In this document: positions 984-44,998 of the stretch, in pieces | Position numbering within the stretch: position 1 is the first letter of the stretch | Layout: each line of letters starts with the position of its first letter | DNA from: Candidatus Gottesmanbacteria bacterium RIFCSPLOWO2_01_FULL_43_11b | GTDB lineage: Bacteria; Patescibacteriota; Microgenomatia; UBA10105; UBA927 | Length of the DNA stretch: 64,000 nucleotides | Direction: 5' to 3' | Assembly: GCA_001780985.1 (NCBI GenBank) | Contig: MFJV01000001.1 | Location: 913,609-977,608, forward strand | The notes under the pieces: model-generated | What the model was told of the DNA's origin: nothing | What the model saw: the letters and a program-made list of their open reading frames with translations, nothing else | The model's database searches: none | Made by a program: the position numbers and the translations under genes

Positions 984-999
984 AGTTCTTAAAGTTTTT

Positions 1000-1519: not shown

Positions 1520-1520
1520 T

Positions 1521-11009: not shown

Positions 11010-11863
11010 TCATTCTCAATTACAACACTGTTGACTTGACACGGATATGTCTCCAAACAGTGTTTGCCTCCAACCTCGGAAAATATACCATGGAAGTAAT
11101 TGTATGCGATAACGGCAGTAGCGACGGAAGTTTGGAGATGATTAAGAAAGAATTCCCTCAGGTAATCCTCATCGATAACAAAAAAAATCTGGGCTTTGCG
11201 GCAGGGAATAATCCCGGGATAAAACGGGCAAAGGGCAGGTATATTCTTCTCCTAAACACCGATATAGAAATTCCGAAAGATACAATTCGGGTGATGCTCG
11301 AGTTTATGGACGGCAGTCCTCAAGTAGGAGTATCAACATGTAAACTACAGCTGCCCGAAGGCTCCATGGACCCTGCCTGTCACAGGGGATTCCCAACACC
11401 TTGGGCAGCATTTACGTACATGAGTGGTCTGGAAAAAATATTTCCCCACACAAAACTTTTCGGAGAGTATCACCAGGGATATAAAGATTTAAAAACCATT
11501 CATGAAGTTGATTGCATCGTTGGTGCATTTTTCCTGGTGAGAAGAGAAGTAATTAAAGAGGTTGGACTACTTGATGAAGACTATTTTATGTATGCAGAAG
11601 ATATTGATTGGTGTTACCGGATAAGAGAGGCAGGTTGGAAGATTATGTTCAATCCAAAAGTTACAATGCTCCATAAGAAAAAACAAAGCGGACGGGCAAA
11701 TATTTTGCGCAAACGCCGCGTCATAACGGAGATCTATTTCCATAAATACAACTGGCTTTTTTACAAAAAGCACTATGCGAAAAAATACGGATCCTTTGTT
11801 TCCATACCCGTCAATATCTTCTACGCGACACGTTTATTTTTTCTTGAAAAACTCGGTCTATGA
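10994..11863 (+). CDS. glycosyltransferase family 2
   Basis: MDLSIVILNYN...VCDNGSSDGS; paralogue of the GT2 at 4766. Confidence 0.8.
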   Translation: MDLSIVILNYNTVDLTRICLQTVFASNLGKYTMEVIVCDNGSSDGSLEMIKKEFPQVILIDNKKNLGFAAGNNPGIKRAKGRYILLLNTDIEIPKDTIRVMLEFMDGSPQVGVSTCKLQLPEGSMDPACHRGFPTPWAAFTYMSGLEKIFPHTKLFGEYHQGYKDLKTIHEVDCIVGAFFLVRREVIKEVGLLDEDYFMYAEDIDWCYRIREAGWKIMFNPKVTMLHKKKQSGRANILRKRRVITEIYFHKYNWLFYKKHYAKKYGSFVSIPVNIFYATRLFFLEKLGL

Positions 11864-12900: not shown

Positions 12901-13945
12901 CCGTGTAAATAAATGGGGAGGGGCGGAGAGGGTGCTGCTGGCACTCCATGAGATTTGGCCTGATGCGCCGCTCTATACAGCTGTCTACGATGAAAAACAA
13001 GCCCCCTGGGCAAAGGTTTTTCAAGTAAAACCATCTTTTTTACAGCACTTTCCCTTTGCCAAAAGCTACCACGAACTCTACCCGTGGTTAACTCCCATGG
13101 CTTTTGAGACGTTTAATTTTGGTGAGTTTGACGTAGTCATTTCCATAACGAGCGCAGAAGCCAAAGGTATTATCACAAAGCCAAAAACACTCCATATCTG
13201 CTATTGTCTTACCCCAACTCGCTACCTTTGGAGCGGGAAAGATGTATACGAGAACACTCCCGGAATGTGGGGACTTGGTTTACGCGTGTGGGGACCAACA
13301 CTTCGAAAATGGGATCTTGTAGCATCAAGTCGCCCCGATCACTACATAGCAATCTCAAAACGGGTGAAAGATAGAATTAAGAAATATTATCAAAGGGATT
13401 CTGACGTTATCTATCCTCCGGTAGATATCTTTCAATCAACAAGCAGTAAAAGCGAATATTTTCTTGTTGTTTCACGGTTCGTCGGTTATAAAAGAGTCGA
13501 TATTATTATTGATGCTTTTAACCATCTCGGATGGCCTTTAGTCATTATTGGAGACGGATTACAGAGAAAAGAACTGCAGGAAAGAGCCGATAAAAACATC
13601 CGATTTATCGATCGGCATTTGACAGAAGAAGAATTACACGCCTATTATGGAAATTGCCGAGCACTTATCTCCGCTGCAGACGAAGATTTTGGTATTGCAG
13701 CAGTTGAAGCAATGGGTGCCGGCAAACCGGTTATCTCATTTTCGGAAAGCGGAATCTCGGAAGTCGTTGAATCAGGGAAAACCGGTATTTTTTTTGAAGA
13801 ACAAAACAAACGTGCTATTATCAGTGCTCTTCAAACGTTTATTAAAAAAAGATTCGATCCGGAATTTTGCAGGAAACAAGCACAGCGGTTTGCCAAAGAA
13901 AGATTTAAGAAAGAATTTAAGAATAAAATACTTTCACTCGTATGA
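12878..13945 (+). CDS. glycosyltransferase family 4
   Basis: ATG 12878 (MKVALVYD...); GT-B; AAVEAMGAGKPVI motif. Confidence 0.8.
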   Translation: MKVALVYDRVNKWGGAERVLLALHEIWPDAPLYTAVYDEKQAPWAKVFQVKPSFLQHFPFAKSYHELYPWLTPMAFETFNFGEFDVVISITSAEAKGIITKPKTLHICYCLTPTRYLWSGKDVYENTPGMWGLGLRVWGPTLRKWDLVASSRPDHYIAISKRVKDRIKKYYQRDSDVIYPPVDIFQSTSSKSEYFLVVSRFVGYKRVDIIIDAFNHLGWPLVIIGDGLQRKELQERADKNIRFIDRHLTEEELHAYYGNCRALISAADEDFGIAAVEAMGAGKPVISFSESGISEVVESGKTGIFFEEQNKRAIISALQTFIKKRFDPEFCRKQAQRFAKERFKKEFKNKILSLV

Positions 13946-15015
13946 AGACAATTATTTTTGCAGGAGGGGTTGGGACAAGACTATGGCCGCTTTCACGGAA
14001 AAAATCTCCCAAGCAATTTGAGAAAATTATCGGAAATAAATCCACGCTGCAGCTTGCAGCCGAACGCCTCCAGCCTGATTTTCCGTGGGATACCCTTTAT
14101 GTTTCAACGGGCAAAGCATACGTTTCCACAGTTGCTGACCAACTGGCAAAAGTTCCTGAGAGTCACATTATAGGGGAGCCTGAAATGCGTGACGTTGGTC
14201 CTGCGGTGGGGCTTATGACTGCACTACTTGCGCGTGAATCTCCCAATGAACCTATGGCTATTATTTGGAGTGATCATCTCGTCAAAAACGTAGAATTATT
14301 TCGCAAAATTCTGGTTAACGCCGGAAAAATTATAGAAAAAAAGGGAGACCGGATTGTTTTTGTTGCACAAAAACCCCGCTTTGCAAGTGAGAATCTTGGC
14401 TGGATAGAGTATGGGAAAGAAGTTATACGAGAAAATGGTACTGCATTTCATGAATTCGTTGATTTCCAGTATAGACCGGACCCGGAAACTGCAAAAAAGT
14501 ATTATAAGAGCGGCCACCACGCATGGAATCTTGGATATTTCGTTACCACCCCCAAGTTCTTATGGTCTCTCTATGAACGGTTTGTACCAAATCTTGCAAA
14601 GGGACTAAAAGATATTGTAAAAAGCGAAAAATTTCAACAGACTCTGGAAAAAATATATCCAACGCTTGAAAAAATAAGCTTTGATAATGCAATTTTAGAG
14701 AGTCTCAATCCGAAAGATGCACTTGTTATCTCAGAAAATATTGAATGGAGTGATATAGGAGCCTGGGAAGCGCTTAAAGAAGCACTTGAAAATAGCACGG
14801 ATAAAAACGTAACGCAGGGAAAAGTCATGCTTACGGATACGAGCGATAGTCTCGTTTATAACTACACAAATCAAACAGTCACCACGATCGATGTAAAAGG
14901 AATGCTCGTTGTTGTTACCGATGACGTTGTGTTGGTTTGCCCGAAAGGATCAGTCCCCAAAATCAAAAAATTCGTTGAAAGTCTCTCGGGCACAAAAAAC
15001 GAACATCTTGTTTAA
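13942..15015 (+). CDS. manC: mannose-1-phosphate guanylyltransferase
   Basis: IIFAGGVGTRLWPLSR nucleotidyltransferase motif characteristic of ManC/GMP. Confidence 0.8.
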   Translation: MKTIIFAGGVGTRLWPLSRKKSPKQFEKIIGNKSTLQLAAERLQPDFPWDTLYVSTGKAYVSTVADQLAKVPESHIIGEPEMRDVGPAVGLMTALLARESPNEPMAIIWSDHLVKNVELFRKILVNAGKIIEKKGDRIVFVAQKPRFASENLGWIEYGKEVIRENGTAFHEFVDFQYRPDPETAKKYYKSGHHAWNLGYFVTTPKFLWSLYERFVPNLAKGLKDIVKSEKFQQTLEKIYPTLEKISFDNAILESLNPKDALVISENIEWSDIGAWEALKEALENSTDKNVTQGKVMLTDTSDSLVYNYTNQTVTTIDVKGMLVVVTDDVVLVCPKGSVPKIKKFVESLSGTKNEHLV

Positions 15016-15022
15016 ACAACCC

Positions 15023-15661
15023 ATGCTGTATTCTTTTACAAAACGAATTATTGATATTGTGGGAGCAACGATTCTCCTCATTTTCTTTTTCCCCATATGT
15101 ATTCTGGTAGCACTCGCCATAAAACTTGACCGACCCGGACCGATTTTTGCCGATACGCCGGAGCGTGTTGGGCAAGGCGGAAAGCCATTTAAACTTTTTA
15201 AATTCCGCTCCATGATAATGAACGCACACAAAAAATTACGGCAGGATCCGCGAATGGCACGGCTCTATCAGGAGTATAAGCGGGGTAGCTACAAGTTACG
15301 TCATGATCCCCGGGTAACCCGAGTCGGCAGGTTTATCAGAAAGCACTCACTCGATGAAATCCCCCAACTACTTAATGTTTTACGGGGCGATATGAGTTTG
15401 GTCGGTCCGAGGCCGTACTACCCGGACGAACTAGTTGAACAACAACGGAAATACCCGAACACAAAAAATCTCGTCAAAGTAGTGCTTTCGGCAAAACCCG
15501 GGATAACAGGCTACTGGCAGGTATCAGGGAGAAGCGAGGTCAATTTTGATAAACGGATTAAAATGGATGCAGATTACGTCAAGAGGGAATCGTTATTTCT
15601 TGACCTCCTCATTCTCGCCAAAAGCCCCTGGGCTATGATTTCCGGAAAGGGTGCAGTTTGA
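15023..15661 (+). CDS. initiating phosphoglycosyl transferase (bacterial sugar transferase, WbaP/PglC-like)
   Basis: ATG 15023; single N-terminal TM then conserved KRIIDIV...DRPGPIF...KFRSM sugar-transferase core. Confidence 0.8.
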   Translation: MLYSFTKRIIDIVGATILLIFFFPICILVALAIKLDRPGPIFADTPERVGQGGKPFKLFKFRSMIMNAHKKLRQDPRMARLYQEYKRGSYKLRHDPRVTRVGRFIRKHSLDEIPQLLNVLRGDMSLVGPRPYYPDELVEQQRKYPNTKNLVKVVLSAKPGITGYWQVSGRSEVNFDKRIKMDADYVKRESLFLDLLILAKSPWAMISGKGAV

Positions 15662-15693
15662 CATATAAAATATAAAGTGATAATGTTAGCGCC

Positions 15694-15936
15694 ATGACGG
15701 GCCGACTATTTAAGGAATCGATTAACGACGAACAGAGTATCAATTTTTTTCAGGACGGTGCAGTTTTCTATACGGCTGATGCCGGAAGACTCCCAATAAC
15801 CATTAAGTTTAAGAAAGAGGGGTTTACTGTTATCTATCGAGAATCAAGAGGGGTAGAAAATCACCAACCTCCCATTGATGTGAACCCGACAGAAACTTTT
15901 GAGTTGGCATCGGGAAAAATCCTTCTTGCAGAATAA
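15694..15936 (+). CDS. hypothetical small protein (80 aa)
   Basis: ORF only; the upstream sequence ttagcgccatga is shared with the start of the 21937 paralogue gene. Confidence 0.3.
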   Translation: MTGRLFKESINDEQSINFFQDGAVFYTADAGRLPITIKFKKEGFTVIYRESRGVENHQPPIDVNPTETFELASGKILLAE

Positions 15937-25595: not shown

Positions 25596-25600
25596 AATTT

Positions 25601-25637
25601 CCCGATGTGGCATACCTGTTCCACATCGGATGTGGAA
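25601..25637. repeat. repeat copy CCCGATGTGGCATACCTG-TTCCACATCGGATGTGGAA, without the inner palindrome
   Basis: Near-identical to the 21000 copy minus the 20-nt insert; contains two mutually exclusive 9-bp stems. Confidence 0.8.
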
Positions 25638-25643
25638 TTTATT
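25619..25643 (+). terminator. candidate intrinsic terminator hairpin (TTCCACATC-G-GATGTGGAA followed by TTTATT)
   Basis: 9-bp inverted repeat plus a T-rich tract 24 nt after the ftsI stop; an alternative upstream pairing (25602-25629) is also possible. Confidence 0.4.
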
Positions 25644-26022
25644 AACGACTTTCCTTTACTTTTACCTCAAAACAGGATGATTTATTTAGAGTTATGATCG
25701 TATCGTGAGAAGTTATTTTTTCCACGAAATCACCACTAGCAATACCTTCAGTATTAACCCCACTACAGACACTTGGTGCTAACTGACAACGCAAACAGGT
25801 ATTAAAAGCTTCAGCGGCTCTTAACCTTTTCGCGCTAACCCTGAAAAAAGAGCTATCATCAAGTTTGTGAAAGGAAGCTCCACTGAATTCATTTAACTTG
25901 TGCGATCGTATTATTAGTTTTTCTATAATCATAAACTCTCCAAGCAAATATAGTGAGGAAGTATAGTAGGAGAGAGAGGAATTGTCAAGCCTATAGTGTT
26001 TTTTGGTTAAATTGGGGCTTAT

Positions 26023-26031
26023 TGGTATAAT
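26023..26031 (+). promoter_or_regulatory. extended -10 promoter element TGgTATAAT upstream of murE
   Basis: The TGN-TATAAT element ends 7 nt before the murE ATG at 26038, which implies a leaderless or very short-leader transcript. Confidence 0.4.
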
Positions 26032-26037
26032 AAACAC

Positions 26038-27195
26038 ATGCTCAGAAGCCTCAAGGGGCTATATCACCTTCTCGTTGCTGTACTTGCCAATATTTGGTTC
26101 GGTTTCCCCAGCCGCAGGCTTACCGTCATAGGTATAACAGGTACGGATGGCAAAACTACGACAACCACACTTATCTACGAAATTCTCAAAGCAGCAGGAT
26201 ACAAAGCCTCAATGATCACATCAGTTCATGCAGTGATTGCCGGAAAAAAGTATGATACAGGCTTCCATGTGACTACTCCGAATGCCTTTTGGGTTCAAAA
26301 ATACCTCCGGGAGGCAGTAAATGGTGGAGATACGCACATGGTTCTTGAAGTAACCTCACACGGACTGTCTCAATTCAGGGTCTTTGGAGTCAAATTTGCC
26401 GTTGGAGTCATTACAAACGTGACCCACGAGCACCTGGATTGGCACGGGACATTTGAACAGTACCTAAAAACTAAACTCTCTCTTCTTAAACGTGCAAAAA
26501 TTGCTGTCATTAATCGGGACGAACTCTCTTATCGCCCAAGGAATAAATACATAACATACGGCATTGTTCGTGAGGCGAGCGTAACGCCCAAAACATATCC
26601 TTTCAAAACAAAACTACTCGGTGATTTCAACCGATACAACATTCTTGCTGCCCTTGCCGCAACGTGTGAAGCATTAAGGGTAGATAAGGAGGTCGCGCTT
26701 AGAAGTATGCGAACCTTCCATGGTGTACCTGGGAGGATGGAGGTTGTGGCAACAAAACCATTTCGAGTAATTGTTGACTTTGCCCATACCCCCCATGCCA
26801 TTGACGTAGCACTCAAAGCGACAAAAAAGTTTACAAAAGGGAGAATAATCCATGTTTTTGGGTCAGCCGGTGCAAGAGACAGAACGAAACGCCCGATTAT
26901 GGGAGAAATGTCGGGAAAATATGCAAAAGTCATAGTTTTGACTGAAGAAGATTACCGGAAAGAGAACGTAAATGACATAATGGATGAAATTACAAAAGGA
27001 ATTTCACCAAATATTGACGTACATCGCTATCCAAACCGTCAGGACGCTATAAATTTTGCCATTTCAATCGCAAAACCAGGAGATACAGTGATAGTCACCG
27101 GCAAAGCGCATGAAAAAAGCCTTTGCCGCGGGACAAAAGAATACCCGTGGAGTGAACATGAGGCAATAAAAAAGGCGCTTAAAAAATATACATAA
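26038..27195 (+). CDS. murE: UDP-MurNAc-L-Ala-D-Glu:diamino acid ligase, lacking the usual N-terminal domain
   Basis: GITGTDGKTTT P-loop, DFAHTP motif and GSAGARDRTKRP C-terminal motif; only 385 aa. Confidence 0.75.
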   Translation: MLRSLKGLYHLLVAVLANIWFGFPSRRLTVIGITGTDGKTTTTTLIYEILKAAGYKASMITSVHAVIAGKKYDTGFHVTTPNAFWVQKYLREAVNGGDTHMVLEVTSHGLSQFRVFGVKFAVGVITNVTHEHLDWHGTFEQYLKTKLSLLKRAKIAVINRDELSYRPRNKYITYGIVREASVTPKTYPFKTKLLGDFNRYNILAALAATCEALRVDKEVALRSMRTFHGVPGRMEVVATKPFRVIVDFAHTPHAIDVALKATKKFTKGRIIHVFGSAGARDRTKRPIMGEMSGKYAKVIVLTEEDYRKENVNDIMDEITKGISPNIDVHRYPNRQDAINFAISIAKPGDTVIVTGKAHEKSLCRGTKEYPWSEHEAIKKALKKYT

Positions 27196-27196: not shown

Positions 27197-27931
27197 ATGT
27201 TCAAGGAAACAATACCAGGAGTATTTCAATCGGAACTACTTTCTCAGCAAAAAATTCTACACGGATTCTCGAATCGTTTAATCGGGGACATGCGAATGGT
27301 TGAACCACGACACAAGCTCAAGGAACTACTTGGTCTTTCATCATACAGGTTAGTTGCAGCTGAGCAGGTGCATGGGGATTCCGTCCACACGGTAACGGAA
27401 AATGATCTGGGTAAGACTGTTTCTGGTGTAGACGGATTGGTTTATAGCAGAGAAAAAGTGAATGCAAATGTGGCTTTGGGAATTATCGCTGCCGACTGCG
27501 TACCACTGCTTCTTGTTGACACCCGAGCTAAGGTTATCGGAGCAGCCCACGCGGGATGGAAGGGGACACTTAGTAGAATAACGACGAATACCATAGATGA
27601 AATGAAAAAACTTGGTGCGAACGCGTCAGACATAGTTGCATCCATCGGTCCACATATCGGAATGTGCCATTACAATGTACCGACGGAGCGCGCGAGAAGA
27701 TTTCAAGAAGCGTTTAATTATGATCAAAAAGCAGTTACTTTTTTTGATAACAGGTGGCATGTTGATATCGGTTGGGCAAATTACCTGCAACTAATTGCAG
27801 CTGGTATTCCTCCGGAGCACATCGATGCTCCGCCAACATGTACGGCATGCCAAATAGACAATTTCTTTTCCTTTAGAAGGGATACTGCGGAAACCTACGG
27901 AGAAATTATGGGAGTAATAGGATTTATATGA
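27197..27931 (+). CDS. pgeF: peptidoglycan editing factor / purine nucleoside phosphorylase (YfiH/DUF152 family)
   Basis: Conserved HG...AADC...GAAHAGWKG...C-H motifs of the YfiH (Cu-oxidase_4) family. Confidence 0.75.
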   Translation: MFKETIPGVFQSELLSQQKILHGFSNRLIGDMRMVEPRHKLKELLGLSSYRLVAAEQVHGDSVHTVTENDLGKTVSGVDGLVYSREKVNANVALGIIAADCVPLLLVDTRAKVIGAAHAGWKGTLSRITTNTIDEMKKLGANASDIVASIGPHIGMCHYNVPTERARRFQEAFNYDQKAVTFFDNRWHVDIGWANYLQLIAAGIPPEHIDAPPTCTACQIDNFFSFRRDTAETYGEIMGVIGFI

Positions 27932-29292
27932 AACATATTTACTTTGTCGGAATAAAGGGAGTTGGGATGGCAGCTTTGGCCATTTACTGCAAAGAAGCCG
28001 GGATGAAAGTATCCGGATGCGATACAGCCGAAGAATTTCCTACAGATGATGAACTCAAAAAGGCAAATATTCCGGTTGATTTTGGATTTGATCCACAGTT
28101 ATTGAAAAAAGCAGATTTGGTTATTTACACAGGCGCTCATGAAGGCCGTGATAATCCGGTTGTTGTAAAAGCGAGGGAGCGCGGAATAGAAACGCTCCCT
28201 CATGGTAAGGCTTTGGGGATGTTTATGGAGGGTAGTCGTCAGATTACTGTTGCAGGAAGCCATGGAAAAACAACAACTGCTGCTATGATTGCTACAATAT
28301 TAAAATCCGCAGGGAAAGATCCGTCCTATGCAATCGGAGCCGGAGCAATCGGAGAGAGTGCTGCCGGTCATTTTGGAAAAGCAAATATATTTATCGCAGA
28401 AGGGGACGAATATGTTACTGATCATGGACACGACGAAACACCGCGTTTTTTATGGCAAAAACCCGAACTTCTTGTTGTGACCAATATTGATTTTGATCAT
28501 CCTGATGTGTATGCAAATATACGTAATGTGCAAGACGCTTTTGTCAGTCTTCAAGAAAAAAGTTCAACAACAATTATCAACAGAGACGACCATAATAGCC
28601 GAATATTACGCGAAGGAATTTCTTTTGGATTTTCACCACAAGCTGATTTTCGGATTACCCATAGCGGTGTGGGACGGGAACGTATGTTTTTTACCCTTGA
28701 ACAAAAAGGCGTGAAGCTTGGAGAATTTGCACTGAAAGTTCCCGGAGCACATAACGTTTCAAATGCAACAGCAGCTGTTGTTACATGCCAGGCATTGGGG
28801 ATATCGATTGATAAAATTCACAAAGGACTTCTGGATTTTTCCGGAACAAAACGACGATTTGAAAAAACAGGCGAGGCAAATGGAGTGATCTATTACGATG
28901 ATTATGCCCACCATCCAGCAGAAATTAAAGCGACACTGAAAGCAGCGCGGGAGTGGTATCCTGAGAAAAAAATTATTGCCGTTTTTCAGCCGCATACCTA
29001 TTCCCGAACCAAAGCATTACTTCCTGATTTTGCGCGAAGTTTCCAAGATGCTACGATGGTAATACTCACCGATATTTATGCATCAGCACGTGAATCTTAC
29101 TCTCATGGAATAACGGGGAAAACTCTCGTAGAAGAAACACTCAAACATCATGGGTCTGTCCGATACGGAAAAGATTTTTTTGAAGTAGAAAAAATACTCG
29201 AGCGTGAATCAGGAGACATAGTCATTTTCATGGGTGCAGGAGATATATACACATGGGCAAAAAAACTATGGATGAAAAACTCAAAAAGTTAA
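27928..29292 (+). CDS. murC: UDP-N-acetylmuramate--L-alanine ligase
   Basis: MurC-type N-terminal Rossmann domain (VGIKGVGMAALA); GSHGKTTT P-loop. Confidence 0.8.
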   Translation: MKHIYFVGIKGVGMAALAIYCKEAGMKVSGCDTAEEFPTDDELKKANIPVDFGFDPQLLKKADLVIYTGAHEGRDNPVVVKARERGIETLPHGKALGMFMEGSRQITVAGSHGKTTTAAMIATILKSAGKDPSYAIGAGAIGESAAGHFGKANIFIAEGDEYVTDHGHDETPRFLWQKPELLVVTNIDFDHPDVYANIRNVQDAFVSLQEKSSTTIINRDDHNSRILREGISFGFSPQADFRITHSGVGRERMFFTLEQKGVKLGEFALKVPGAHNVSNATAAVVTCQALGISIDKIHKGLLDFSGTKRRFEKTGEANGVIYYDDYAHHPAEIKATLKAAREWYPEKKIIAVFQPHTYSRTKALLPDFARSFQDATMVILTDIYASARESYSHGITGKTLVEETLKHHGSVRYGKDFFEVEKILERESGDIVIFMGAGDIYTWAKKLWMKNSKS

Positions 29293-32040: not shown

Positions 32041-33329
32041 AAAATCTCACAGCACTCATTCTTGCAGCCGGGGCTGGAAAACGCTTTTGGCCATTCTCAC
32101 AGAAAGTCCTTTTCCCTTTCATGGGGAAAACATTTTTTGAACATGCGATTGTTAGCATATTACCAAAGGAAGTTGAGCGTGTTGTAATTGTCGGAAGTAG
32201 TGAAAATGAAAAAGCACTGCGATCAATTAAATTTTCAGTGCCTTCTACAATTGTCGTACAAAAAACACCATCCGGTATGGCAAATGCCATTGTAACTGCA
32301 GAAGATGAAATAAAGGATTCATCGCTCCTGGTTATTAACGCCGATGACATTGAGAATCCAAATGTATACGAAGAAATTATTAAAAAGGCACAATTATCCC
32401 AAGCGTTCGGTATAGTTCCAGCAATTCATACAGATTCATATGAAGAAGCAGGATACCTTGTTTTAGACGGCACAAAGATTAAAAAAATAGAGGAAAAGCC
32501 AGGGGCAGGAAACGAACCAAGCAAGTTAATATTCATGGTGAGTTATTTTGTTCGTGACGCCAATACTCTCATAAATAGCTTAAAACAAACACAAAGTGAT
32601 AAAGATGATGTGCATGAACGCGCACTTACATCTTTGATGCAGTCACATAATTTTGAATTGTATGAACATGAAGGTGCATTTGTTTCTCTCAAATATCCAT
32701 GGCATGTGCTCTCTGCGATGGAGATACTATTGAAAAAAATAGAAAGCTTCAGGGGAAATAATGTTACTACACACAAAAACGTAACAATAGAAGGAGATGT
32801 TTATATAGGTGACAATGTAAAAATATTTGAGGGGACGAAGATAATTGGACCCTGTTATATCGGCCCAAATACAATTATTGGGAATAATAATCTTATTAGA
32901 GAAAGTCATATTGGAAGTAACTGTGTAACAGGATTTAACACCGATATTACGAGAAGCTACGTCGGAGATAGGTGCTGGTTCCACAGCAATTACATAGGTG
33001 ACAGCATCCTTGAATCAGACATTACACTCGGCGCAGGGACAATTCTGGCAAATTTACGTCTTGATGAGGGCGAAATTTTAACTTCCGGTCGTACCAAACT
33101 CGGAGCAATAATTGGAACAGATACACATATCGGGGTTAACACAAGTATCATGCCCGGAATAAAAATCGGCTCTCATTGTTTTATCGGTGCGCAAGTTAGC
33201 ATTGATCGCGACATACAAGATGACAGTTTTTGTATAGGAAAAACAGAACTTATTATTAAAAAGAACACACGAACGATTGCAAAACAATCACGGGAAAGTT
33301 TTCGAGAGAAAATGAAAAAATATGTATGA
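32037..33329 (+). CDS. sugar-1-phosphate nucleotidyltransferase with a C-terminal left-handed beta-helix (GlmU-like)
   Basis: LAAGAGKRF nucleotidyltransferase motif plus C-terminal hexapeptide repeats. Confidence 0.65.
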   Translation: MKNLTALILAAGAGKRFWPFSQKVLFPFMGKTFFEHAIVSILPKEVERVVIVGSSENEKALRSIKFSVPSTIVVQKTPSGMANAIVTAEDEIKDSSLLVINADDIENPNVYEEIIKKAQLSQAFGIVPAIHTDSYEEAGYLVLDGTKIKKIEEKPGAGNEPSKLIFMVSYFVRDANTLINSLKQTQSDKDDVHERALTSLMQSHNFELYEHEGAFVSLKYPWHVLSAMEILLKKIESFRGNNVTTHKNVTIEGDVYIGDNVKIFEGTKIIGPCYIGPNTIIGNNNLIRESHIGSNCVTGFNTDITRSYVGDRCWFHSNYIGDSILESDITLGAGTILANLRLDEGEILTSGRTKLGAIIGTDTHIGVNTSIMPGIKIGSHCFIGAQVSIDRDIQDDSFCIGKTELIIKKNTRTIAKQSRESFREKMKKYV

Positions 33330-34060
33330 AGTTTCCATTCTTCAAACAAACAATCGTCATACTTCATGGTTGGAACCTTTCCGGTGAACGATTTCTTCCC
33401 TTAACTAATGAATTCAAAAAATTGAGATACAAAGTTTTTGCTCCGGATCTGCCGGGGTTTGGAGAGGAAAAGGCACCGGAAACCCCATGGCACATTAAGG
33501 ATTATGCAGATTTTCTGCAAGGGTATTTTCGAAAAAAACACATAAAAAACCCAATTCTTGTCGGTCATTCATTCGGCGGGAGGGTAAGCCTCAAATACCA
33601 ACAGTTGTACCCAAAAAATGTTCGAGCAATAATTTTATCCGGAACACCAGGATTTTCACCTGTTCCCAAGAAAAAAATGTTCATTTTTTTCATCCTTTCG
33701 AAAATCGGAAAAATAATTTTTTCCATTCCGCCTTTAACACTCTTTTCCGATGTAGCACGCCGCTATCTCTATTATGTTGCCGGAACGAGAGAATTTTTCC
33801 ATGCGGAGGGGAGTATGCGGCAGACATTCAAACATATAGTTGCTGATGATTTAGTTGTTTCCATGGAATCAATGCAGGTGCCGTGTTTACTCTTGTGGGG
33901 GGAATACGATGTCATCGTGCCTGTGTCAATTGCCAAGAGAATGCAGGAAGTGATTCCAAACGCTACGCTCAAAGTAATTCCAGAAGCAGATCATGGTGTC
34001 CCTTTTAAACAGTCGGATATCTTTGCCTCCTACGTCGAAGGATTTCTAAAAACCTTATGA
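33326..34060 (+). CDS. alpha/beta hydrolase
   Basis: GHSFGG nucleophile elbow; C-terminal DHG catalytic His. Confidence 0.7.
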   Translation: MKFPFFKQTIVILHGWNLSGERFLPLTNEFKKLRYKVFAPDLPGFGEEKAPETPWHIKDYADFLQGYFRKKHIKNPILVGHSFGGRVSLKYQQLYPKNVRAIILSGTPGFSPVPKKKMFIFFILSKIGKIIFSIPPLTLFSDVARRYLYYVAGTREFFHAEGSMRQTFKHIVADDLVVSMESMQVPCLLLWGEYDVIVPVSIAKRMQEVIPNATLKVIPEADHGVPFKQSDIFASYVEGFLKTL

Positions 34061-35451
34061 ATGTTGTAACAATCCTCCTAGCAATTGCATGGTTTATCCG
34101 AATTTTTGGCAATCTTGTAAGTTTTATTGCACTTTGGTGGATAAAAGAATATCGCATTGATAGGATGATGATTCAGTTTCGGACGAGTGGTTTGAAATTA
34201 CTGTTTTTCCCGCCATATCGGTTGCCTCCATTAAGCCCAAAGACCATGACAATATTTTTATTAGCTTCAGTAAGTATTGTTTCTTTTCTTTTATTTTCGA
34301 AAATTACACTGATAATTGAATTACTTATCGTTGATCTGTTACTTTTTTCATTAACACTGATTTTTGTTGAGTTACTATCTTTACCTACAAAAATTTATCA
34401 TCGTATTCTTATTTCATTGGCAATATCAAAACTTCGAGCCCACAAAGGACTTTACGTTATTGGTATTACAGGAAGTTACGGAAAAACTTCGGTCAAGGAC
34501 TATTTAACAACCATACTTAGTTCAAAATTCCGTGTACTCAAAACTGAAGCGAGTAAAAATTCTCCGATCGGTATTGCAGAGGTCGTATTATCTAAACTTC
34601 ATGCTGATCATGAAATTTTTGTTGTTGAAATGGGAGCGTATAAACGCGGAGAAATAAGAGAAATGACAAATATGGTGAGGCCGCAAATCGGAATAATTAC
34701 AGCAATAAATCCACAGCACCAGGATCTATTCGGAACAATAGAAAACACAATGGCCGCAAAATATGAACTCATAGTAGGATTAACAGGAAAAAAAATGGGA
34801 ATATTTAATGGAGACGACCCGAGAGTACGACAGATGAGTCAATGGGCCAAACGTGATGGGAAACAGGTGCGGATGTGGTCAATTGAAAACGCACAAGACG
34901 TTCGTGCTGATTTGGATGGGGTGCAATTTACATTGAATACATCAGTTCATGTTAAGTCTCCAGTATTAGGAGAGCACCAGGTGAGTAATATTCTCGCGGC
35001 CATTGTTGCGGCTCATGCGTGTGGCATGAATATTTCTGAGGCAGCCAAAGCAGCAACTGAGATAAAACCAGCAAAAGGAGTCATGCAAAAAATCAAAGGA
35101 GTCAATGGATCCCTTTTTATCGATGACACATTTAACAATAATCCCGACGGAGCAAAAGCAGCAATTGCTTTTCTGGAAAAAATGAAAGGAAGAAAAATTC
35201 TCGTATTTCAACCGATGATTGAACTTGGATCATATGCATTAATTTCGCATCGTGAAGTGGGAAAATTCGCAGAGCGAGTATGTGATGAGATTATTTTGAC
35301 AAATAATAGCTATGAGAAGAAACTTCACGGAAAAGTTATGAATACAAAAGATGCGACGGATTATCTGCAAAAAAATATCAAAAAAGGAGACACGGTGTTA
35401 TTTAAAGGAAAAGAAGCAGGTAAAATATTAAAGCTATGTTTAGAAAAATAA
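34057..35451 (+). CDS. murF: UDP-MurNAc-pentapeptide synthetase with an atypical N-terminal membrane domain
   Basis: GITGSYGKTS P-loop and the MurF-specific DDTFNNNP...MIELG C-terminal motifs; the first 120 aa or so are 3-4 TM helices in place of the usual N-domain. Confidence 0.7.
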   Translation: MNVVTILLAIAWFIRIFGNLVSFIALWWIKEYRIDRMMIQFRTSGLKLLFFPPYRLPPLSPKTMTIFLLASVSIVSFLLFSKITLIIELLIVDLLLFSLTLIFVELLSLPTKIYHRILISLAISKLRAHKGLYVIGITGSYGKTSVKDYLTTILSSKFRVLKTEASKNSPIGIAEVVLSKLHADHEIFVVEMGAYKRGEIREMTNMVRPQIGIITAINPQHQDLFGTIENTMAAKYELIVGLTGKKMGIFNGDDPRVRQMSQWAKRDGKQVRMWSIENAQDVRADLDGVQFTLNTSVHVKSPVLGEHQVSNILAAIVAAHACGMNISEAAKAATEIKPAKGVMQKIKGVNGSLFIDDTFNNNPDGAKAAIAFLEKMKGRKILVFQPMIELGSYALISHREVGKFAERVCDEIILTNNSYEKKLHGKVMNTKDATDYLQKNIKKGDTVLFKGKEAGKILKLCLEK

Positions 35452-36560
35452 TATCATGCGCGTTGTCGCCTAATACTGAAATTGATGATGTTTTCCTTGC
35501 GCTACAAACAATCTGCACACCATGGAAATGGAAATATGGCAAAGCGATAGACAAAGTGGAGAAAAAACTGGGCGCTATTACATTTAATAGCGGCAGATCT
35601 GCATTCCTCGCTCTCCTTGAGGCATTTGATATAGGAGAGGGTGATGAAGTAATTGTTCAGGCATTCACCTGCGTTGCCGTACCCAATAGTGTTCTTTGGG
35701 CTGGAGCAAAACCGGTTTTTGCAGATATAGATGAGACGTATAATATTGATCCTAAAGACATCGAGAAAAAAATCACAAAAAAAACGAAAGCAATAGTTGT
35801 GCAACATACTTTTGGAATTCCTGCCGACATGAATGCTATTCTTGCTCTCTCAAAAAAACATAACGTTTTTGTCATAGAAGATTTTGCTCACACGATGTCT
35901 ATACCTATGAGGGGTGATGCGGCATTTTTCAGCTTTGGCAGGGACAAGGTACTTTCGAGCGTGTGGGGTGGGGCAGCCTCAATAAGTTCAAAGTTAAAAG
36001 TTCAAAGTGAAAAGTTAAAAGAATTTCAATCCAATCTTCTGGTGCCGGGAAATTTTTGGATATTTCAACAACTTTTGCACCCAATCGCCTTCTCTATCAT
36101 CCTTACATTGTACGACGTCATCATAGGAAAACTATTTCTTGTCTTGCTTCAAAAACTGAGATTGCTATCGTTTCCGGTCTATAAAGAGGAAAAATCCGGC
36201 GGTCAGCCAAGTGATTTTCCGGCCAAATATCCAAATGCGTTGGCGTGTTTACTATTAAATCAACTCAAGAAACTTGATCGGTATACAGAAAAAAGAGAAC
36301 AAGCCGTGCGTTTCTATGGTGGAAAACTACCGTTATTGCGATACCCAATGCGTGTTAATGAACCTGAAAAAATAATTCAAAGGGCAAAAGAACACGGTGT
36401 TCTTCTTGGGAATTGGTACCACAATGTCATTGATCCCCAAGGGGTAACGTACCGGGCAGCCAATTGTCCGAAGGCAGAAGAGGCGGCAGCTCACATTATA
36501 AATCTGCCAACACTTATTTCTATTGCTGAGGCGAAGCGGGTATGGAAACACTTATCGTAG
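35436..36560 (+). CDS. DegT/DnrJ/EryC1/StrS-family PLP-dependent sugar aminotransferase
   Basis: Fold-type I aminotransferase pattern with the FSFGRDK lysine region. Confidence 0.6.
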   Translation: MFRKIISCALSPNTEIDDVFLALQTICTPWKWKYGKAIDKVEKKLGAITFNSGRSAFLALLEAFDIGEGDEVIVQAFTCVAVPNSVLWAGAKPVFADIDETYNIDPKDIEKKITKKTKAIVVQHTFGIPADMNAILALSKKHNVFVIEDFAHTMSIPMRGDAAFFSFGRDKVLSSVWGGAASISSKLKVQSEKLKEFQSNLLVPGNFWIFQQLLHPIAFSIILTLYDVIIGKLFLVLLQKLRLLSFPVYKEEKSGGQPSDFPAKYPNALACLLLNQLKKLDRYTEKREQAVRFYGGKLPLLRYPMRVNEPEKIIQRAKEHGVLLGNWYHNVIDPQGVTYRAANCPKAEEAAAHIINLPTLISIAEAKRVWKHLS

Positions 36561-37444: not shown

Positions 37445-38365
37445 ATGACACCTCAAATATGGGAACAATTCCTCATAAAATATAGCCCCAGCGCTCTTTT
37501 TCAATCGTGGAAGTGGGGAGAAGTTGAGAAAAAACTGGGAAACAAAATTTGGAGATTAGAGTGGGAGGACGATGCAATTGCACTGGTTGTTAAAGTAACC
37601 GCGCGGCGCGGAACGTTTTTACATATACGCCACGGACCAGTGGTTTCTGATAAGAGATATTTCAAAAAAATTCTTTCAGACTTAATAGAACTTGCAAAGA
37701 AGGAACACGCATGGTTTGTGCGAATTAGCCCTCAAGTACAGTCACTTCCTGATTTGGGATTAGTATCTGCTCCGATTCATGCCATGGACGCGGAACTTTG
37801 CTGGGTTTTGGATTTGGACAAAAGCGAAGAGGATCTTCTTAGTAACATGCGTAAAACCACTCGCTATGAAATTAAACATGCTCAAGAAGTAACTGTTGAA
37901 AAAACCAAGAAATTAGAACGGTTTTTTCATCTCTACGATGCGACGAGTACGCGGCATAAATTTGTACAGCATACGGGGATTCGTGAAGAATTTGAAACAC
38001 TTGATGCAGAACTTTTTGTAGCATCACATCAAGGGACTGATTTAGCAGCAGCTATCATCGTTTATTATGGTGATCAGGCAATCTACCGCCACGGCGCCTC
38101 TCTTCCATCAAAAGTTCCTGCTTCATATACAACCCAATGGGAGGCAATCCGTGAAGCTAAATATAGAGGTAAAAAATTGTACAATTTTTGGGGTATAGCG
38201 CCTGAGGATAAACTAAATCATCCATGGAGAGGAATAACACTGTTCAAAAAGGGCTTTGGAGGGAGGGAAATTAAGTATATCCACGCTCAAGACTTGCCTA
38301 TTTCACCACTCTATACGATTACACGATCGGTTGAGACAATGAGGAGGATTGTCAAAGGGTATTAA
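37445..38365 (+). CDS. FemAB-family peptidoglycan aminoacyltransferase
   Basis: FLQSWKWGEVK N-terminal signature of the FemABX (GNAT-like) family; about 306 aa. Confidence 0.65.
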   Translation: MTPQIWEQFLIKYSPSALFQSWKWGEVEKKLGNKIWRLEWEDDAIALVVKVTARRGTFLHIRHGPVVSDKRYFKKILSDLIELAKKEHAWFVRISPQVQSLPDLGLVSAPIHAMDAELCWVLDLDKSEEDLLSNMRKTTRYEIKHAQEVTVEKTKKLERFFHLYDATSTRHKFVQHTGIREEFETLDAELFVASHQGTDLAAAIIVYYGDQAIYRHGASLPSKVPASYTTQWEAIREAKYRGKKLYNFWGIAPEDKLNHPWRGITLFKKGFGGREIKYIHAQDLPISPLYTITRSVETMRRIVKGY

Positions 38366-38385: not shown

Positions 38386-38754
38386 ATGCGGGAGATACTG
38401 CGTAAACATCACATATCCTTCAAAAACGCATTTGCCGGGATCTTTTGGAGTCTGCGGACACAACCAAATTTCCGTGTGCATATTTTCCTCTCTACCCTTG
38501 CCTTGATTCTCGCCTGGTATTTACGTATTTCTCGATTAGAAACACTCGTAATTATTTTTACGATAATTCTTGGTTTAACCGCTGAGATGATTAATACCTC
38601 ACTTGAATCCATGACTGATTTAATTACCAAAGAATGGAAATCTGAAGCCAAGGTTGCTAAAGACGTCTCAGCAGGTATGATGCTCACAGTAGCAATAGGA
38701 GCCGTGATTATTGCGGCGTTTATTTATGTACCCTACTTATGGAAATTCTTTTAG
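38386..38754 (+). CDS. dgkA: diacylglycerol / undecaprenol kinase
   Basis: Three TM helices plus the DgkA signature (FRVHIF...GLTAEMINTSLE). Confidence 0.7.
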   Translation: MREILRKHHISFKNAFAGIFWSLRTQPNFRVHIFLSTLALILAWYLRISRLETLVIIFTIILGLTAEMINTSLESMTDLITKEWKSEAKVAKDVSAGMMLTVAIGAVIIAAFIYVPYLWKFF

Positions 38755-39785
38755 GTCTGCTTTTGTTTTCGTGGCTGATATCCAGCATTCTCTATATTCC
38801 TTTCATTAAGCTTCTCTATAAATGGAGGTTTCAACGTCTCCGCCAGACAACGCGTGACGCATTTAATAAACGAACTCCCATTTTTGACCGCTTCCATGCA
38901 AAAAAAGCAGGAACACCGGTCGGTGGAGGACTCCTTATAATTCTCGTGGCAACCGTGCTTTTTCCTCTCGTACTTATTTTGATGCGCTATTTCTGGATTC
39001 CTATTTCATCAGTCTACCCGCTTTCAAGCGAGATTAAAATATTACTCTTTACGTTCGTTTCATTCGGCGTACTGGGACTTCTCGATGATATTAAAAAGAC
39101 GTTTCTTTGGGTAAAGCCGAAGTTTTTTGGGCTACGTCTTCGGCATAAATTATTTCTTGAAATAGTTCTTGCCGCAATTGTTTCGTTTTGGATGATGTTC
39201 GAGCTTAAAATTAGTATCTTCTATATTCCCGGATTTGGTGTCATTGAGCTCGGGTGGTGGTATATACCATTTGCCGTATTTGTCATTATTGCATTTGCCA
39301 ATGCATTCAATATTACCGATGGTTTAGATGGGCTCGCTTCCGGGGTACTCATGGTTGCCCTCATGGCGTTTTGGTTTTTATCAGCCTCAATTCTCGATAC
39401 ACCGCTTTCCGTTTTTATCGCATTGTGGCTCGGCGCCCTTCTTTCTTTCCTCTACTTCAATATCCACCCTGCAAGGATTTTTTTAGGTGATGTGGGCGCT
39501 TTATCCTTTGGGGCAACGTTTGCCGTTGTTGGGCTTATTTTAGGGAAAGCGCCGGCACTTGTTGTCATCGGAGCTATTTTTGTCGTTGAGGCTGCCTCTT
39601 CCCTCCTTCAGCTTACGTCAAGATCAGTGTTAAATAAAAAAATATTTGCCGTTGCGCCGTTTCACCTCTGGCTCCAATTGAAGGGATGGGAAGAATCAAA
39701 AATAGTCATGCGCTTCTGGATTATTGCAATTGTGTTGGCAATTTTTGGTTTATGGCTAGCATTACTCATAAAACCCACCGTCTAA
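38739..39785 (+). CDS. mraY: phospho-N-acetylmuramoyl-pentapeptide transferase
   Basis: NAFNITDGLDGLASG motif. Confidence 0.85.
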   Translation: MEILLGLLLFSWLISSILYIPFIKLLYKWRFQRLRQTTRDAFNKRTPIFDRFHAKKAGTPVGGGLLIILVATVLFPLVLILMRYFWIPISSVYPLSSEIKILLFTFVSFGVLGLLDDIKKTFLWVKPKFFGLRLRHKLFLEIVLAAIVSFWMMFELKISIFYIPGFGVIELGWWYIPFAVFVIIAFANAFNITDGLDGLASGVLMVALMAFWFLSASILDTPLSVFIALWLGALLSFLYFNIHPARIFLGDVGALSFGATFAVVGLILGKAPALVVIGAIFVVEAASSLLQLTSRSVLNKKIFAVAPFHLWLQLKGWEESKIVMRFWIIAIVLAIFGLWLALLIKPTV

Positions 39786-40843
39786 CCCCCCCTGATTACT
39801 GGTTAACGGTCGTGACCATTATCCTGAGTATTTTCGGCCTCATCATGGTCTATGATTCCTCTGTTGCTATTGCACTTCGGGATTTTTCAGACCAATATCA
39901 CTTTGTCCGTGAGCAGATTCGATGGTTTTTTGTCGGAAGTATTGCCCTTATAATTGGTTCGTTTTTTGACTATCACCGCCTGTATAAGCTCGCAGTTCCT
40001 TTACTTCTTGTAACGCTTTTTCTTCTCCTTCTCGTATTTATTCCTAGTATAGGGATTGCCGCATTAGGAGCTCATCGTTGGATTAATTTTGGTTTCTTTG
40101 TTTTTCAGCCGGCGGAACTTGCCAAACTTAGCCTTATTATTTATCTGGCAGCATGGTTTTCATATCCTGAAAAAGGAAGAATCTTGCCATTTCTCTTTTT
40201 ACTGGGTTTAGTTATTGGATTAGTTGTTGCTGAGCCGGATTTAGGAACGGCGTTTATTATTTTAATGATCGCGCTCACCATGTATTTTTTTTCAGGCGCA
40301 TCTTTATGGCAATTTGCACTGCTTATTCCGGCCTTAGCTACATCTGTCGGTGCACTTGCGGTATTTTCTCCGTATCGACTCAGGCGTATTACTACATTTT
40401 TTAATTCAGATATAGACCCTCTGGGGGCTTCATATCAAATCCGTCAAGTACTTCTTGCTTTAGGATCCGGCGGATTATGGGGTCTGGGTCTTGGGAAATC
40501 ACGCCAGAAGTACGAATACCTTCCTGAGGCCAATACGGATTCAATTTTTGCAATTATTGGAGAAGAGATAGGGTTTATCGGTGCAGCAGCAGTCATTTTC
40601 CTTTTTTTATTCCTCGTATGGCGGGGATTCCGTATCGCAAGACGCGCCCCGGATACGTTTGGGAAGCTCCTTGCTCTCGGAATTTCTTCCTGGATTGGCC
40701 TCCAGGCGCTTGTAAACCTCGGGGCGATGGTTGCACTCATTCCCTTAACAGGCGTCCCATTGCCGCTTATTTCATACGGCGGATCAAGTTTGATTCTTAT
40801 GCTTTTTGGTATTGGTATACTTTTAAATATAAGTAGGCAATGA
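39752..40843 (+). CDS. ftsW: SEDS-family peptidoglycan glycosyltransferase / lipid II flippase FtsW
   Basis: 10-TM SEDS signature; position between mraY and murG; start taken at ATG 39752. Confidence 0.75.
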   Translation: MASITHKTHRLTPPDYWLTVVTIILSIFGLIMVYDSSVAIALRDFSDQYHFVREQIRWFFVGSIALIIGSFFDYHRLYKLAVPLLLVTLFLLLLVFIPSIGIAALGAHRWINFGFFVFQPAELAKLSLIIYLAAWFSYPEKGRILPFLFLLGLVIGLVVAEPDLGTAFIILMIALTMYFFSGASLWQFALLIPALATSVGALAVFSPYRLRRITTFFNSDIDPLGASYQIRQVLLALGSGGLWGLGLGKSRQKYEYLPEANTDSIFAIIGEEIGFIGAAAVIFLFLFLVWRGFRIARRAPDTFGKLLALGISSWIGLQALVNLGAMVALIPLTGVPLPLISYGGSSLILMLFGIGILLNISRQ

Positions 40844-43882: not shown

Positions 43883-44998
43883 ATGCTCATAAAGCCCGAA
43901 ATTGCCCGCTTTGCAAAAATTAAAGTCGTTGGAATTGGTGGTGGTGGCTGTAATGCGGTTACTTCGATGATCAGTATAAGCCAAATTAATGGTGTTGATT
44001 TTATCGGCATTAATACAGACGCCCAAGCTCTCCTCATGTGTCAGGCTGCAACGAAGATTCAAATCGGAGAAAATTTAACGCGGGGCTTAGGAGCAGGGGG
44101 TGACCCGGAAATCGGAATAAAGGCAGCTGAAGAGTCTAAGGAAAAAATAAAAGAATACCTTCGCGATAGCGACATGGTGTTTCTTACCTGTGGCGAGGGA
44201 GGAGGAACAGGAACCGGTGCAACACCACTCATTGCTGAAATTGCAAAAGAGCTTGGCGCTTTGACAGTTGCTGTTGTTACAAAACCATTCCAATTTGAGG
44301 GCACGCGAAGGATGATAAATGCAGAAGAGGGAATTACAAACCTCAAAGATAAAGTGGATACCCTCATTGTCATTCCGAATCAACGACTCCTAGAGGTAAT
44401 TGATAAAAAAATGACCCTTCTTGAGGCATTTAGAGTTACAGACTCAGTATTATCTCAGGGTGTACAGGGTATTTCTGACCTTATTACCATGCCGGGGCTT
44501 ATTAACGTCGACTTTGCAGACGTACGAACCATTATGACGAGTGCAGGATCTGCACTTATGGGAATTGGAACCGGGGTCGGAGAAAATAGAGCCGCAACAG
44601 CAGCCAGGACTGCAATTGCCTCGCCGCTTCTTGAAATGTCGATTGAAGGGGCTAAGGGAGTGCTTTTCAATATTACCGGAGGCCCGGATCTCACCATGTC
44701 AGAAGTTGATGAGGCAGCCAAACAAATTGCTGCTGCAGTTGACCCGGATGCAAATATTATTTTTGGCGCGACCATTGACGAACATCTTGTTGATCAGGTA
44801 AAAATTTCAGTGATCGCAACAGGATTTGATGAAACGAGAAGGAGATTAAGGGAGCTTTCATCGCGGCCATCCCCCGTAGGCCAAGTTCCACCCCCACTAA
44901 CAACGACACAACAGCCTCCGGTAACACAACTCACGGATGATCTTCCTCCCGAAGAGGACGAATTCGACATCCCCGCATTCCTCCGTCAAAGAAGCTAG
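43883..44998 (+). CDS. ftsZ: cell-division GTPase FtsZ
   Basis: [10 protein letters not shown] and GGGTGTG tubulin-signature motifs. Confidence 0.9.

Follow-up and report, generated by a model that had tools for sequence, protein, structure and literature searches.

A MurF homologue with a predicted membrane domain in place of domain 1, and a shortened MurE, in Candidatus Gottesmanbacteria and other members of the Candidate Phyla Radiation

The window analysed here is a stretch of 64,000 nucleotides from Candidatus Gottesmanbacteria bacterium RIFCSPLOWO2_01_FULL_43_11b (contig MFJV01000001.1, positions 913,609 to 977,608 of the forward strand), a representative of the Candidate Phyla Radiation (CPR, or Patescibacteria). 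It carries a division and cell wall (dcw) gene cluster in which the murF gene probably encodes an integral membrane protein, with a module of three transmembrane (TM) helices in the place of the uridine diphosphate (UDP)-binding domain 1 and with the catalytic domains located at the inner face of the membrane. We refer to this protein as TM-MurF. The MurE encoded in the same cluster is short and starts at its ATP-binding domain. The enzymes MurC to MurF are, in the textbook pathway, soluble and cytoplasmic and, to our knowledge, all their solved structures comprise three soluble domains.

The catalytic part of TM-MurF has the hallmarks of a MurF. When the protein is compared with TIGR01143, the NCBIfam model for murF, residues 121–454 align with model positions 64–408 of 418 (E 1.9e-70); the next distinct Mur ligase type is MurD, with an E-value of 2.3e-27, so that MurF is ahead by 43 orders of magnitude. 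Pfam detects PF08245 at residues 137–319 (E 5.2e-39) and PF02875 at residues 343–452 (E 1.7e-11), and nothing N-terminal to these. All of the sequence matches in the PDB are MurF proteins (the best being 4cvk, 3.4e-34), with identities to canonical MurF of 24–27%, and a Foldseek search with the AlphaFold2 model gave MurF chains in each of the top ten positions (E 3e-25 to 1e-19, over about 370 aligned columns), led by 4qf5 (E 3e-25). An earlier reading of the DNA, made from its letters and open reading frames (ORFs) and referred to here as the sequence-only reading, had described the MurF motifs as intact, and this proves to be the case: GITGSYGKTS, DDTFNNNP and MIELG can all be located, and 76 homologues show no variation at the key residues of these motifs. 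For the P-loop the invariant residues are G136, T138, G139, S140, G142, K143 and T144, and the two C-terminal motifs align with IDDSYNANP and GDMGELG of Pseudomonas aeruginosa MurF. Thus the catalytic part of the protein looks like MurF by every test of sequence and fold except for the curated score cutoff and the missing domain 1.

The absence of domain 1 is evident from the alignments with MurF proteins of known structure, which begin at residue 69 of the Thermotoga maritima enzyme, 95 of that from Escherichia coli and 105 of that from P. aeruginosa. Positions 1–63 of TIGR01143 are likewise unmatched, and it is here that the TM module is found, as expected from the proposal of the sequence-only reading that a hydrophobic N-terminal domain stands in for the soluble domain 1 of MurF. 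That reading allowed for three to four hydrophobic helices. Hydropathy analysis gives hydrophobic stretches at residues ∼3–28 and 63–108, and the AlphaFold2 model of the full-length protein, which has a predicted local distance difference test (pLDDT) score of 94.3 and a predicted template modelling (pTM) score of 0.89, has helices at residues 3–29, 61–80 and 85–128. The prediction is therefore of three TM helices, and the fourth is not borne out. Two short helices (residues 34–44 and 47–50) are assigned to the loop that follows TM1, which is predicted to be cytoplasmic, and the long helix 85–128 passes directly into strand 133–138, the first strand of the ligase. Scans of the N-terminal 131 residues against Pfam (threshold E 0.1) and NCBIfam (threshold E 0.01) gave no match, and no PDB entry gave a fold match to the membrane domain (residues 1–128).

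Two conserved sequence motifs are found close to the predicted membrane surface, one at the end of TM1 and the other just before TM2, the penultimate helix. The first, LWWIKEYRIDRM, is a signature of the family. Its consensus, L-W-[QWY]-x-K-E-Y-R-x-D-R, is present in most of the proteins matched by a hidden Markov model (HMM) of the N-domain, and when 25 N-domains are compared, 15 positions are invariant (W12, R15, N19, W27, K30, E31, R33, D35, R36, M37, D93, V104, P110, H115 and I119). In the second motif, the positions of which lie outside every search pattern used, P57 is conserved in 99% of 76 family members, [ST]60 in 95% and [KR]62 in 99%; A122, in the stalk helix that continues from TM3, is similarly conserved (95–99%). 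Lysine and arginine residues in the same 76 sequences average 8.95 in the loop that follows TM1 and 4.92 beyond TM3, compared with 0.07 before TM1 and 0.08 between TM2 and TM3. By the positive-inside rule, this distribution predicts an external N-terminus and a cytoplasmic location for both motifs and for the ligase, which, being ATP-dependent, has to be on that side. For the motif region (residues 31–50), pLDDT values are 83–88 in the full-length model compared with 62–65 when the N-domain is modelled alone, a hint that this region may pack against the ligase.

Whether relatives share the TM extension was a question raised by the sequence-only reading, and it is answered in the affirmative by the closest homologues, by the N-domain HMM and by a survey of species-representative genomes. 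The best 120 homologues of TM-MurF have 49–62% sequence identity with it, and cover 97–100% of the query except for four with 92–96% coverage; one of these four, P0106 (437 residues), starts after TM1. Wherever a P-loop is recognised among these homologues it is at residue ∼136, and in public databases they are annotated as MurF, as 'Mur ligase family protein' or as hypothetical protein. The HMM constructed for the N-domain only, when searched against a database of 1.84 billion cluster representatives, matched 328 of them at E ≤ 1e-3 and 54 at E ≤ 1e-10, with a best E-value of 1.7e-47. Among the best 150 of the 328 matches, proteins of 399–597 residues begin with the N-domain, most having a recognisable P-loop at residues 125–223, and 45 that are shorter than 300 residues look like fragments; neither a stand-alone N-domain nor a fusion to any other kind of domain was seen in this set.

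There is variation in the length of the N-domain. The Gottesmanbacteria-type proteins have three helices and a P-loop at about residue 136. Most other members have some 50 residues or more inserted between the two motifs, with the P-loop at residues ∼170–242, and at ∼175–210 where the insertion is of about 50 residues; examples are the proteins P0260–P0390 and those encoded at loci L006, L029 and L083. The insertion probably comprises an extra pair or pairs of TM helices, given that 50 residues provide room for a two-helix hairpin, and the topology would then be unchanged.

The taxonomic spread of the family was assessed with a degenerate DNA pattern of the signature motif, using one genome per GTDB species, and at least 119 loci were found. 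About 95 of these have an ORF that starts ∼25 residues before the motif. The complete ORFs encode 430–635 residues, usually with a recognisable Mur-ligase P-loop, and about 25 are cut by the end of a contig or locus. Only one of the loci that were examined closely, on a Thermococcus contig, is a clear chance match. On the Microgenomates side the loci belong to Gottesman-, Levy-, Roizman-, Woese- and Shapirobacteria, and among the Parcubacteria/Paceibacteria to Staskawicz-, Wolfe-, Magasanik- and Andersenbacteria and Spechtbacterales; Saccharibacteria, Dojkabacteria, Peregrini-/Peribacteria and Wirthbacteria are also represented. Many records of metagenome-assembled genomes (L008, L013, L021, L031, L034 and others) that are titled 'uncultured Gammaproteobacteria' or 'Pseudomonadales' carry a TM-MurF and a gene order of the Gottesmanbacteria or CPR type. 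Such titles look wrong, and we regard the 'uncultured Gammaproteobacteria' ones as unreliable, since the sequences are Gottesmanbacteria-like and the gene order is that of CPR.

MurE in this cluster also lacks domain 1. It scores 381.9 bits against TIGR01085, above the curated cutoff of 257.3. Both PF08245 and PF02875 are present, and PF01225, which the neighbouring MurC has, is absent. The sequence-only reading held that MurE begins directly at the ATP-binding domain, and the alignments concur: residue 14 aligns with residue 89 of T. maritima MurE (E 2.3e-73) and residue 12 with position 88 of 486 in NF001126, and an in-frame stop codon is found just 9 codons upstream of the ATG. The best 120 homologues are equally short, at 362–422 residues (383–422 for all but one), and PF01225 occurs in none of them. 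More distant CPR murE genes, whose products have 43–45% identity (L021, L096, L082), have the same start point, with stop codons just upstream. MurC, which retains PF01225, provides an internal control, implying that the loss of the domain is specific to MurE and MurF. As far as sequences can tell, neither the membrane MurF nor the short MurE is a defect of one genome; we conclude that both characterise CPR/Patescibacteria as a clade.

Some indication of the stem peptide comes from MurE. The motif DNPR is characteristic of MurE enzymes that add meso-diaminopimelate (DAP), and the window protein lacks it: the corresponding residues (∼302–306) read EDYR, as against DDPR in T. maritima MurE. Of the solved structures, that of the lysine-adding T. 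maritima enzyme matches the window protein best. Together with the FemX-like gene downstream of murF, these features hint that the stem peptide lacks DAP and carries a side-chain bridge.

The gene neighbourhood of TM-MurF is conserved across many CPR lineages, as a string of genes that encode an α/β-hydrolase, TM-MurF, a DegT-like enzyme that would use pyridoxal phosphate (PLP) and a FemX-like protein, often together with MraY (Table 1). The ATG start codon of murF shares the sequence ATGA with the stop codon of the hydrolase gene, and in 77 of 107 TM-MurF loci a hydrolase gene directly precedes the TM-MurF gene in the same orientation. The DegT-like gene is immediately downstream in 70 of the 107, a further 25 being cut by the edge of the locus, and the FemAB-like gene is the second gene downstream in 40. 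In many loci mraY is one to a few genes downstream of TM-MurF, and a gene of the diacylglycerol kinase (DAGK) family is often there too. The DegT-like protein retains a motif resembling that of the PLP-binding lysine, FSFGRDK, and its match to PF01041 ends at residue 182. It is followed by a hydrophobic insert at residues ∼205–245, with a peak of 2.18 in 19-residue hydropathy; 65% of 65 DegT-like orthologues from related loci have a comparable hydrophobic stretch, suggesting that this enzyme may also sit on the membrane.

Table 1. Coordinates of the principal features within the 64,000-nucleotide window.
Feature	Position	Strand	Details
TM-MurF gene, membrane domain plus Mur-ligase central and C-terminal domains	34057..35451	+	One 464-aa ORF
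Predicted membrane domain, aa 1–128	34057..34440	+	TM1 aa 3–29; TM2 aa 61–80; TM3 from aa 85, stalk helix to aa 128
Family signature LWWIKEYRIDRM	34132..34167	+	aa 26–37, predicted cytoplasmic end of TM1
Second juxtamembrane motif RLPPLSPK	34219..34242	+	aa 55–62, just before TM2; consensus P-x-x-[ST]-x-[KR]
P-loop GITGSYGKTS, ATP-binding	34462..34491	+	aa 136–145
MurF-type C-domain motif DDTFNNNP	35122..35145	+	aa 356–363
PMIELG motif	35212..35229	+	aa 386–391
Short murE without domain 1	26038..27195	+	385 aa; P-loop at aa 32 (26131–26157)
Variable intergenic insertion, ftsI–murE	25596..26037		442 nt
Extended −10-like TGGTATAAT	26023..26031	+	Ends 6 nt before murE ATG
murC, normal N-terminal domain	27928..29292	+	PF01225 at aa 3–102; TIGR01082 408 bits, cutoff 335
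α/β-Hydrolase gene, upstream partner of murF	33326..34060	+	PF00561, PF12146; stop overlaps murF start
DegT/DnrJ/EryC1-like PLP enzyme, downstream partner	35436..36560	+	PF01041 at aa 43–182; 16-nt overlap with murF end
FemAB/FemX-like peptidyl transferase	37445..38365	+	PF02388; weak FemX match NF047883
mraY	38739..39785	+	PF00953

How might such an enzyme work? We infer that TM-MurF would carry out the usual MurF reaction, adding D-Ala-D-Ala to the N-acetylmuramic acid (MurNAc)-tripeptide while this is still UDP-linked. TM3 would extend as a cytoplasmic stalk into the first strand of the ATP-binding domain, and because the stalk joins this domain the catalytic domains would be held at the inner face of the membrane. 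The two juxtamembrane motifs, LW-x-x-KEYR-x-DR and P-x-x-[ST]-x-[KR], are rich in basic and aromatic residues and would sit where domain 1 would otherwise be. They may bind the UDP-diphosphate end of the substrate, dock a membrane partner, or both. The pentapeptide product could then be released beside MraY, the enzyme that uses it, and the coupling of TM-MurF to MraY that the sequence-only reading had suggested is plausible. MurE, on the other hand, would simply have lost its domain 1 and remained soluble.

Several points weigh against this proposal or limit its reach. TM-MurF scores 237.9 bits against TIGR01143, below the curated cutoff of 288.6, and so falls outside formal membership of the family, a shortfall explained by the lack of any counterpart for model positions 1–63, which correspond to domain 1. 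Specificity for D-Ala-D-Ala cannot be read from the sequence. The topology depends only on hydropathy and the positive-inside rule, and the hint that the motif region packs against the ligase comes from pLDDT values. Finally, the conservation of the KEYR motif in the pattern-derived set of at least 119 loci is circular, because the motif was itself the query; the independent support comes from the HMM search.

A less conventional explanation, to which we give a small but real chance, is that TM-MurF, and perhaps the short MurE too, acts not on UDP-linked precursors but on undecaprenyl-diphosphate-MurNAc-peptides of the lipid I/II type. If so, MraY would come into play at an earlier stage than the textbook pathway has it. 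The role of the membrane module would be to bring the ligase to the lipid carrier, whose diphosphate would be bound, at the surface of the membrane, by the KEYRxDR and PxxTxK motifs. Such an explanation fits with the loss of the UDP-binding domain from the last two ligases only, MurC keeping this domain and one Saccharibacteria MurD having a normal N-terminal region, and with the fact that the conserved neighbours include the membrane-stage enzymes FemX-like and MraY. MurT, a Mur ligase homologue that lacks domain 1 and works on lipid II, offers a precedent (PMC6113224). Substrate complexes of MurE and MurF have the pyrophosphate at the boundary of domain 1 and the middle domain, and with a lipid-linked substrate a UDP-binding domain would have no purpose and would collide with the membrane (PMC6113224). 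In our model of TM-MurF this same boundary would coincide with the membrane surface. No direct evidence supports a lipid-linked substrate, however, and MraY would need to accept a precursor carrying a tri- or dipeptide, unlike the one that it normally transfers. No feature that would bind MurE to the membrane is seen, and the sole NCBIfam match of the FemX-like protein, a weak one, is to an enzyme that uses the soluble UDP-pentapeptide. A simple tether, moreover, accounts for the same data.

Could TM-MurF be a MurF in appearance only? Another membrane-associated ligase of the Mur superfamily, whether PgsB/CapB-like, MurT-like or adding a different C-terminal unit, would be consistent with the score below the MurF cutoff and the novel N-domain. 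It would also fit with the unusual conserved neighbours, the α/β-hydrolase and the DegT-like PLP enzyme, and with the fact that general scans of a subset of the window ORFs turned up no ddl gene. We nevertheless consider this very unlikely. MurF is by far the best match for TM-MurF, both as a family and as a structure, and the MurF-type motifs DDxxNxNP and M-x-ELG are invariant. The PgsB model TIGR04012 is absent from the NCBIfam matches of the window MurF, and the MurT model NF052464 matches neither this protein nor the window MurE at E ≤ 0.01; MurE itself gives a distant, superfamily-level match to TIGR04012 (E 2.2e-11; the model cutoff is 222.7 bits). In addition, no other ORF scanned in this dcw cluster, which also encodes MurA, MurB, MurC, MurE, MraY, MurG and FtsW, is a candidate for MurF.

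Two further possibilities, both with a negligible chance of being correct in our view, would reduce the unusual architecture to an error of annotation or to gene decay. The first is a mis-called start, which the sequence-only reading had named as its own refutation. The true MurF would start near the P-loop, with the hydrophobic stretch untranslated or forming a small membrane protein of its own, and alternative in-frame ATG or TTG codons do occur at residues 37, 38, 46, 56, 64 and 121. This is effectively refuted: no stop codon separates the membrane part from the ligase, none of the internal start candidates, of which only the TTG at residue 121 is near the P-loop, is preceded by a Shine-Dalgarno-like sequence, the 120 closest homologues and those full-length HMM matches that were inspected conserve the N-terminal 128 residues at the protein level, in the reading frame of the ligase, ORFs of the family begin ∼25 residues ahead of the signature motif, and in the model one continuous helix, residues 85–128, connects TM3 with the ligase. 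The public gene call gives the same length of 464 residues.

The second is that murE is short because it is truncated or in decay, its N-domain having eroded into the gap that precedes it, a notion prompted by the long non-coding gap directly 5′ of murE, unusual in a tightly packed cluster. The murE product passes the curated cutoff for its family, however, its 120 best homologues are just as short and lack PF01225, and in distant CPR murE genes the equivalent start is preceded, within a few codons, by a stop. The spacer between ftsI and murE is 442 nt in the window, 728 nt in one relative (L004, MurE 81% identical) and just 27 nt in another (L005, MurE 72% identical). The L004 gap carries different small ORFs, and only three short patches are alike in the two gaps. 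The two strongest patches cover the last 66 nt of the window gap (25972–26037), which hold the putative promoter, and the third, weaker one is a hairpin just after ftsI. The window gap begins with an inverted repeat (25602–25610 and 25621–25629). The longest plus-strand fragment in the gap is at most 39 residues. A minus-strand ORF of 131 residues (25642–26037) has a best Pfam E-value of 0.048, which is no family match, and no counterpart in the L004 gap, and is probably non-coding. At its gathering score Rfam finds nothing in the gap, its sole match in the window being a tRNA elsewhere. The search for remnants of a MurE N-domain that the sequence-only reading had suggested is thus negative, and on the comparison with relatives the gap was rejected as a decayed N-domain and is regarded as a variable insertion.

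The same reading had pointed to a promoter-like TGgTATAAT in the gap, and this element, TGGTATAAT, is indeed present at the position given in Table 1. The sequence TGnTATAAT is found at an identical distance from the murE ATG in L004 (∼2993–3058) and in L005 (∼9941–10006). A generic promoter scan of the window did not call the site, which is attributable to a weak −35 element, and overall it called no more sites than in shuffled sequences. Conservation in just these two relatives is the basis for suggesting a promoter within the dcw cluster, from which a murE mRNA with no leader, or almost none, would be made.

Comparison with known systems shows what is shared and what is not. Canonical MurF (TIGR01143; PDB 1GG4, 4CVM, 4QF5 and 3ZL8) has the same central and C-terminal domains as TM-MurF (Foldseek E 1e-22 to 1e-25), and the same P-loop, DDxxNxNP and M-x-ELG motifs, and TM-MurF too sits in a dcw cluster. 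In contrast to the soluble domain 1 of canonical MurF, which comprises ∼65–100 residues and binds UDP, TM-MurF has a 128-residue module, predicted to form three TM helices, with conserved motifs of its own, and is predicted to be an integral membrane protein. The MurT subunit of MurT/GatD (PDB 6GS2, 7Q8E) resembles TM-MurF in being a Mur-ligase homologue without the UDP-binding domain 1, and it acts at the membrane on a lipid-linked precursor; unlike TM-MurF, it is a soluble protein whose C-terminal domain is of another kind, and it depends on GatD and catalyses an amidation instead of a ligation (PMC6113224). Foldseek detects MurT as a structural relative of TM-MurF (E ∼1e-14), although the window protein is far closer to MurF.

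The poly-γ-glutamate synthetase PgsB/CapB is an amide ligase of the Mur superfamily that belongs to a membrane complex. It has another reaction and other partners, its model TIGR04012 is unmatched by TM-MurF, and no relation to the N-domain was found. MurE–MurF fusions and MurG/MreB scaffolds gather the late Mur ligases near membrane enzymes, and they can be seen as solving the same logistic problem as TM-MurF, that of keeping these ligases close to the membrane. The structure 8F5D, of a MurE–MurF fusion from Bordetella, is among both the sequence and the fold matches of TM-MurF. In these systems the ligases are soluble and retain their N-domains, with proximity achieved by fusion or by protein–protein contacts, whereas in CPR it is MurF itself that would be a membrane protein, with MurE separate and shortened.

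The dcw cluster of the window, as defined by Pfam scans, runs in the order mraZ, rsmH, a small ORF, ftsI, the gap, murE, a Cu-oxidase_4 (PgeF-type) gene, murC and murB, then a RidA-like gene, murA, an archaeal-type GlmU-like gene, the α/β-hydrolase gene, murF, the DegT-like gene and a gene for a metallo-β-lactamase-fold protein, and finally a 4-TM-segment holin-family gene, the FemAB-like gene, a diacylglycerol-kinase-family gene, mraY, ftsW, murG, ftsQ and ftsA. An ORF at 43883–44998, after ftsA, is where ftsZ would be expected. A tblastn search with a Saccharibacteria MurD gave no match to murD in the 64-kb window, including the interval from mraY to ftsW (38739–40843). In a Saccharibacteria locus, mraY is followed by a MurD (L118, 6952–7998) whose N-terminal region, ahead of the P-loop, is normal. 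The Cu-oxidase_4 (PgeF/YfiH-type) gene, at 27197–27931 between murE and murC, is found likewise in L004 and L005 and in the distant CPR loci L021, L096 and L112. Elsewhere, positions 1–15700 of the window form a large surface-polysaccharide cluster with several glycosyltransferases of families GT4 and GT2, an NAD-dependent epimerase/dehydratase and a mannose-1-phosphate guanylyltransferase-like gene, and a protein of 1000 residues with an O-antigen-ligase (Wzy_C) domain is encoded there at 5607–8609.

The sequences themselves are already public, annotated as MurF, Mur ligase or hypothetical. In a literature search that covered sources other than subscription-only ones, we found no published description of a membrane-integral MurF or of this short form of MurE, of a Mur ligase with N-terminal TM helices, or of the Mur ligases of CPR, Patescibacteria or Saccharibacteria. 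Nearly all members of the CPR, which accounts for a large share of bacterial diversity, await cultivation, and a life attached to host cells is presumed for many of them. Curated MurF models under-call the TM-MurF proteins. The sequence LWQxKEYRxDR followed by a Mur ligase is a sharp signature, and both this and the gene string of hydrolase, TM-MurF, DegT-like and FemX-like proteins could serve as markers for CPR. For the Mur ligases in general, these proteins suggest that domain 1 can be dispensed with, as in MurE, or replaced, as in MurF. For the CPR, they suggest that the last cytoplasmic steps in the synthesis of peptidoglycan precursors are physically organised at the membrane, and whether the pathway steps follow the same order in these bacteria as elsewhere becomes a question that can be tested.

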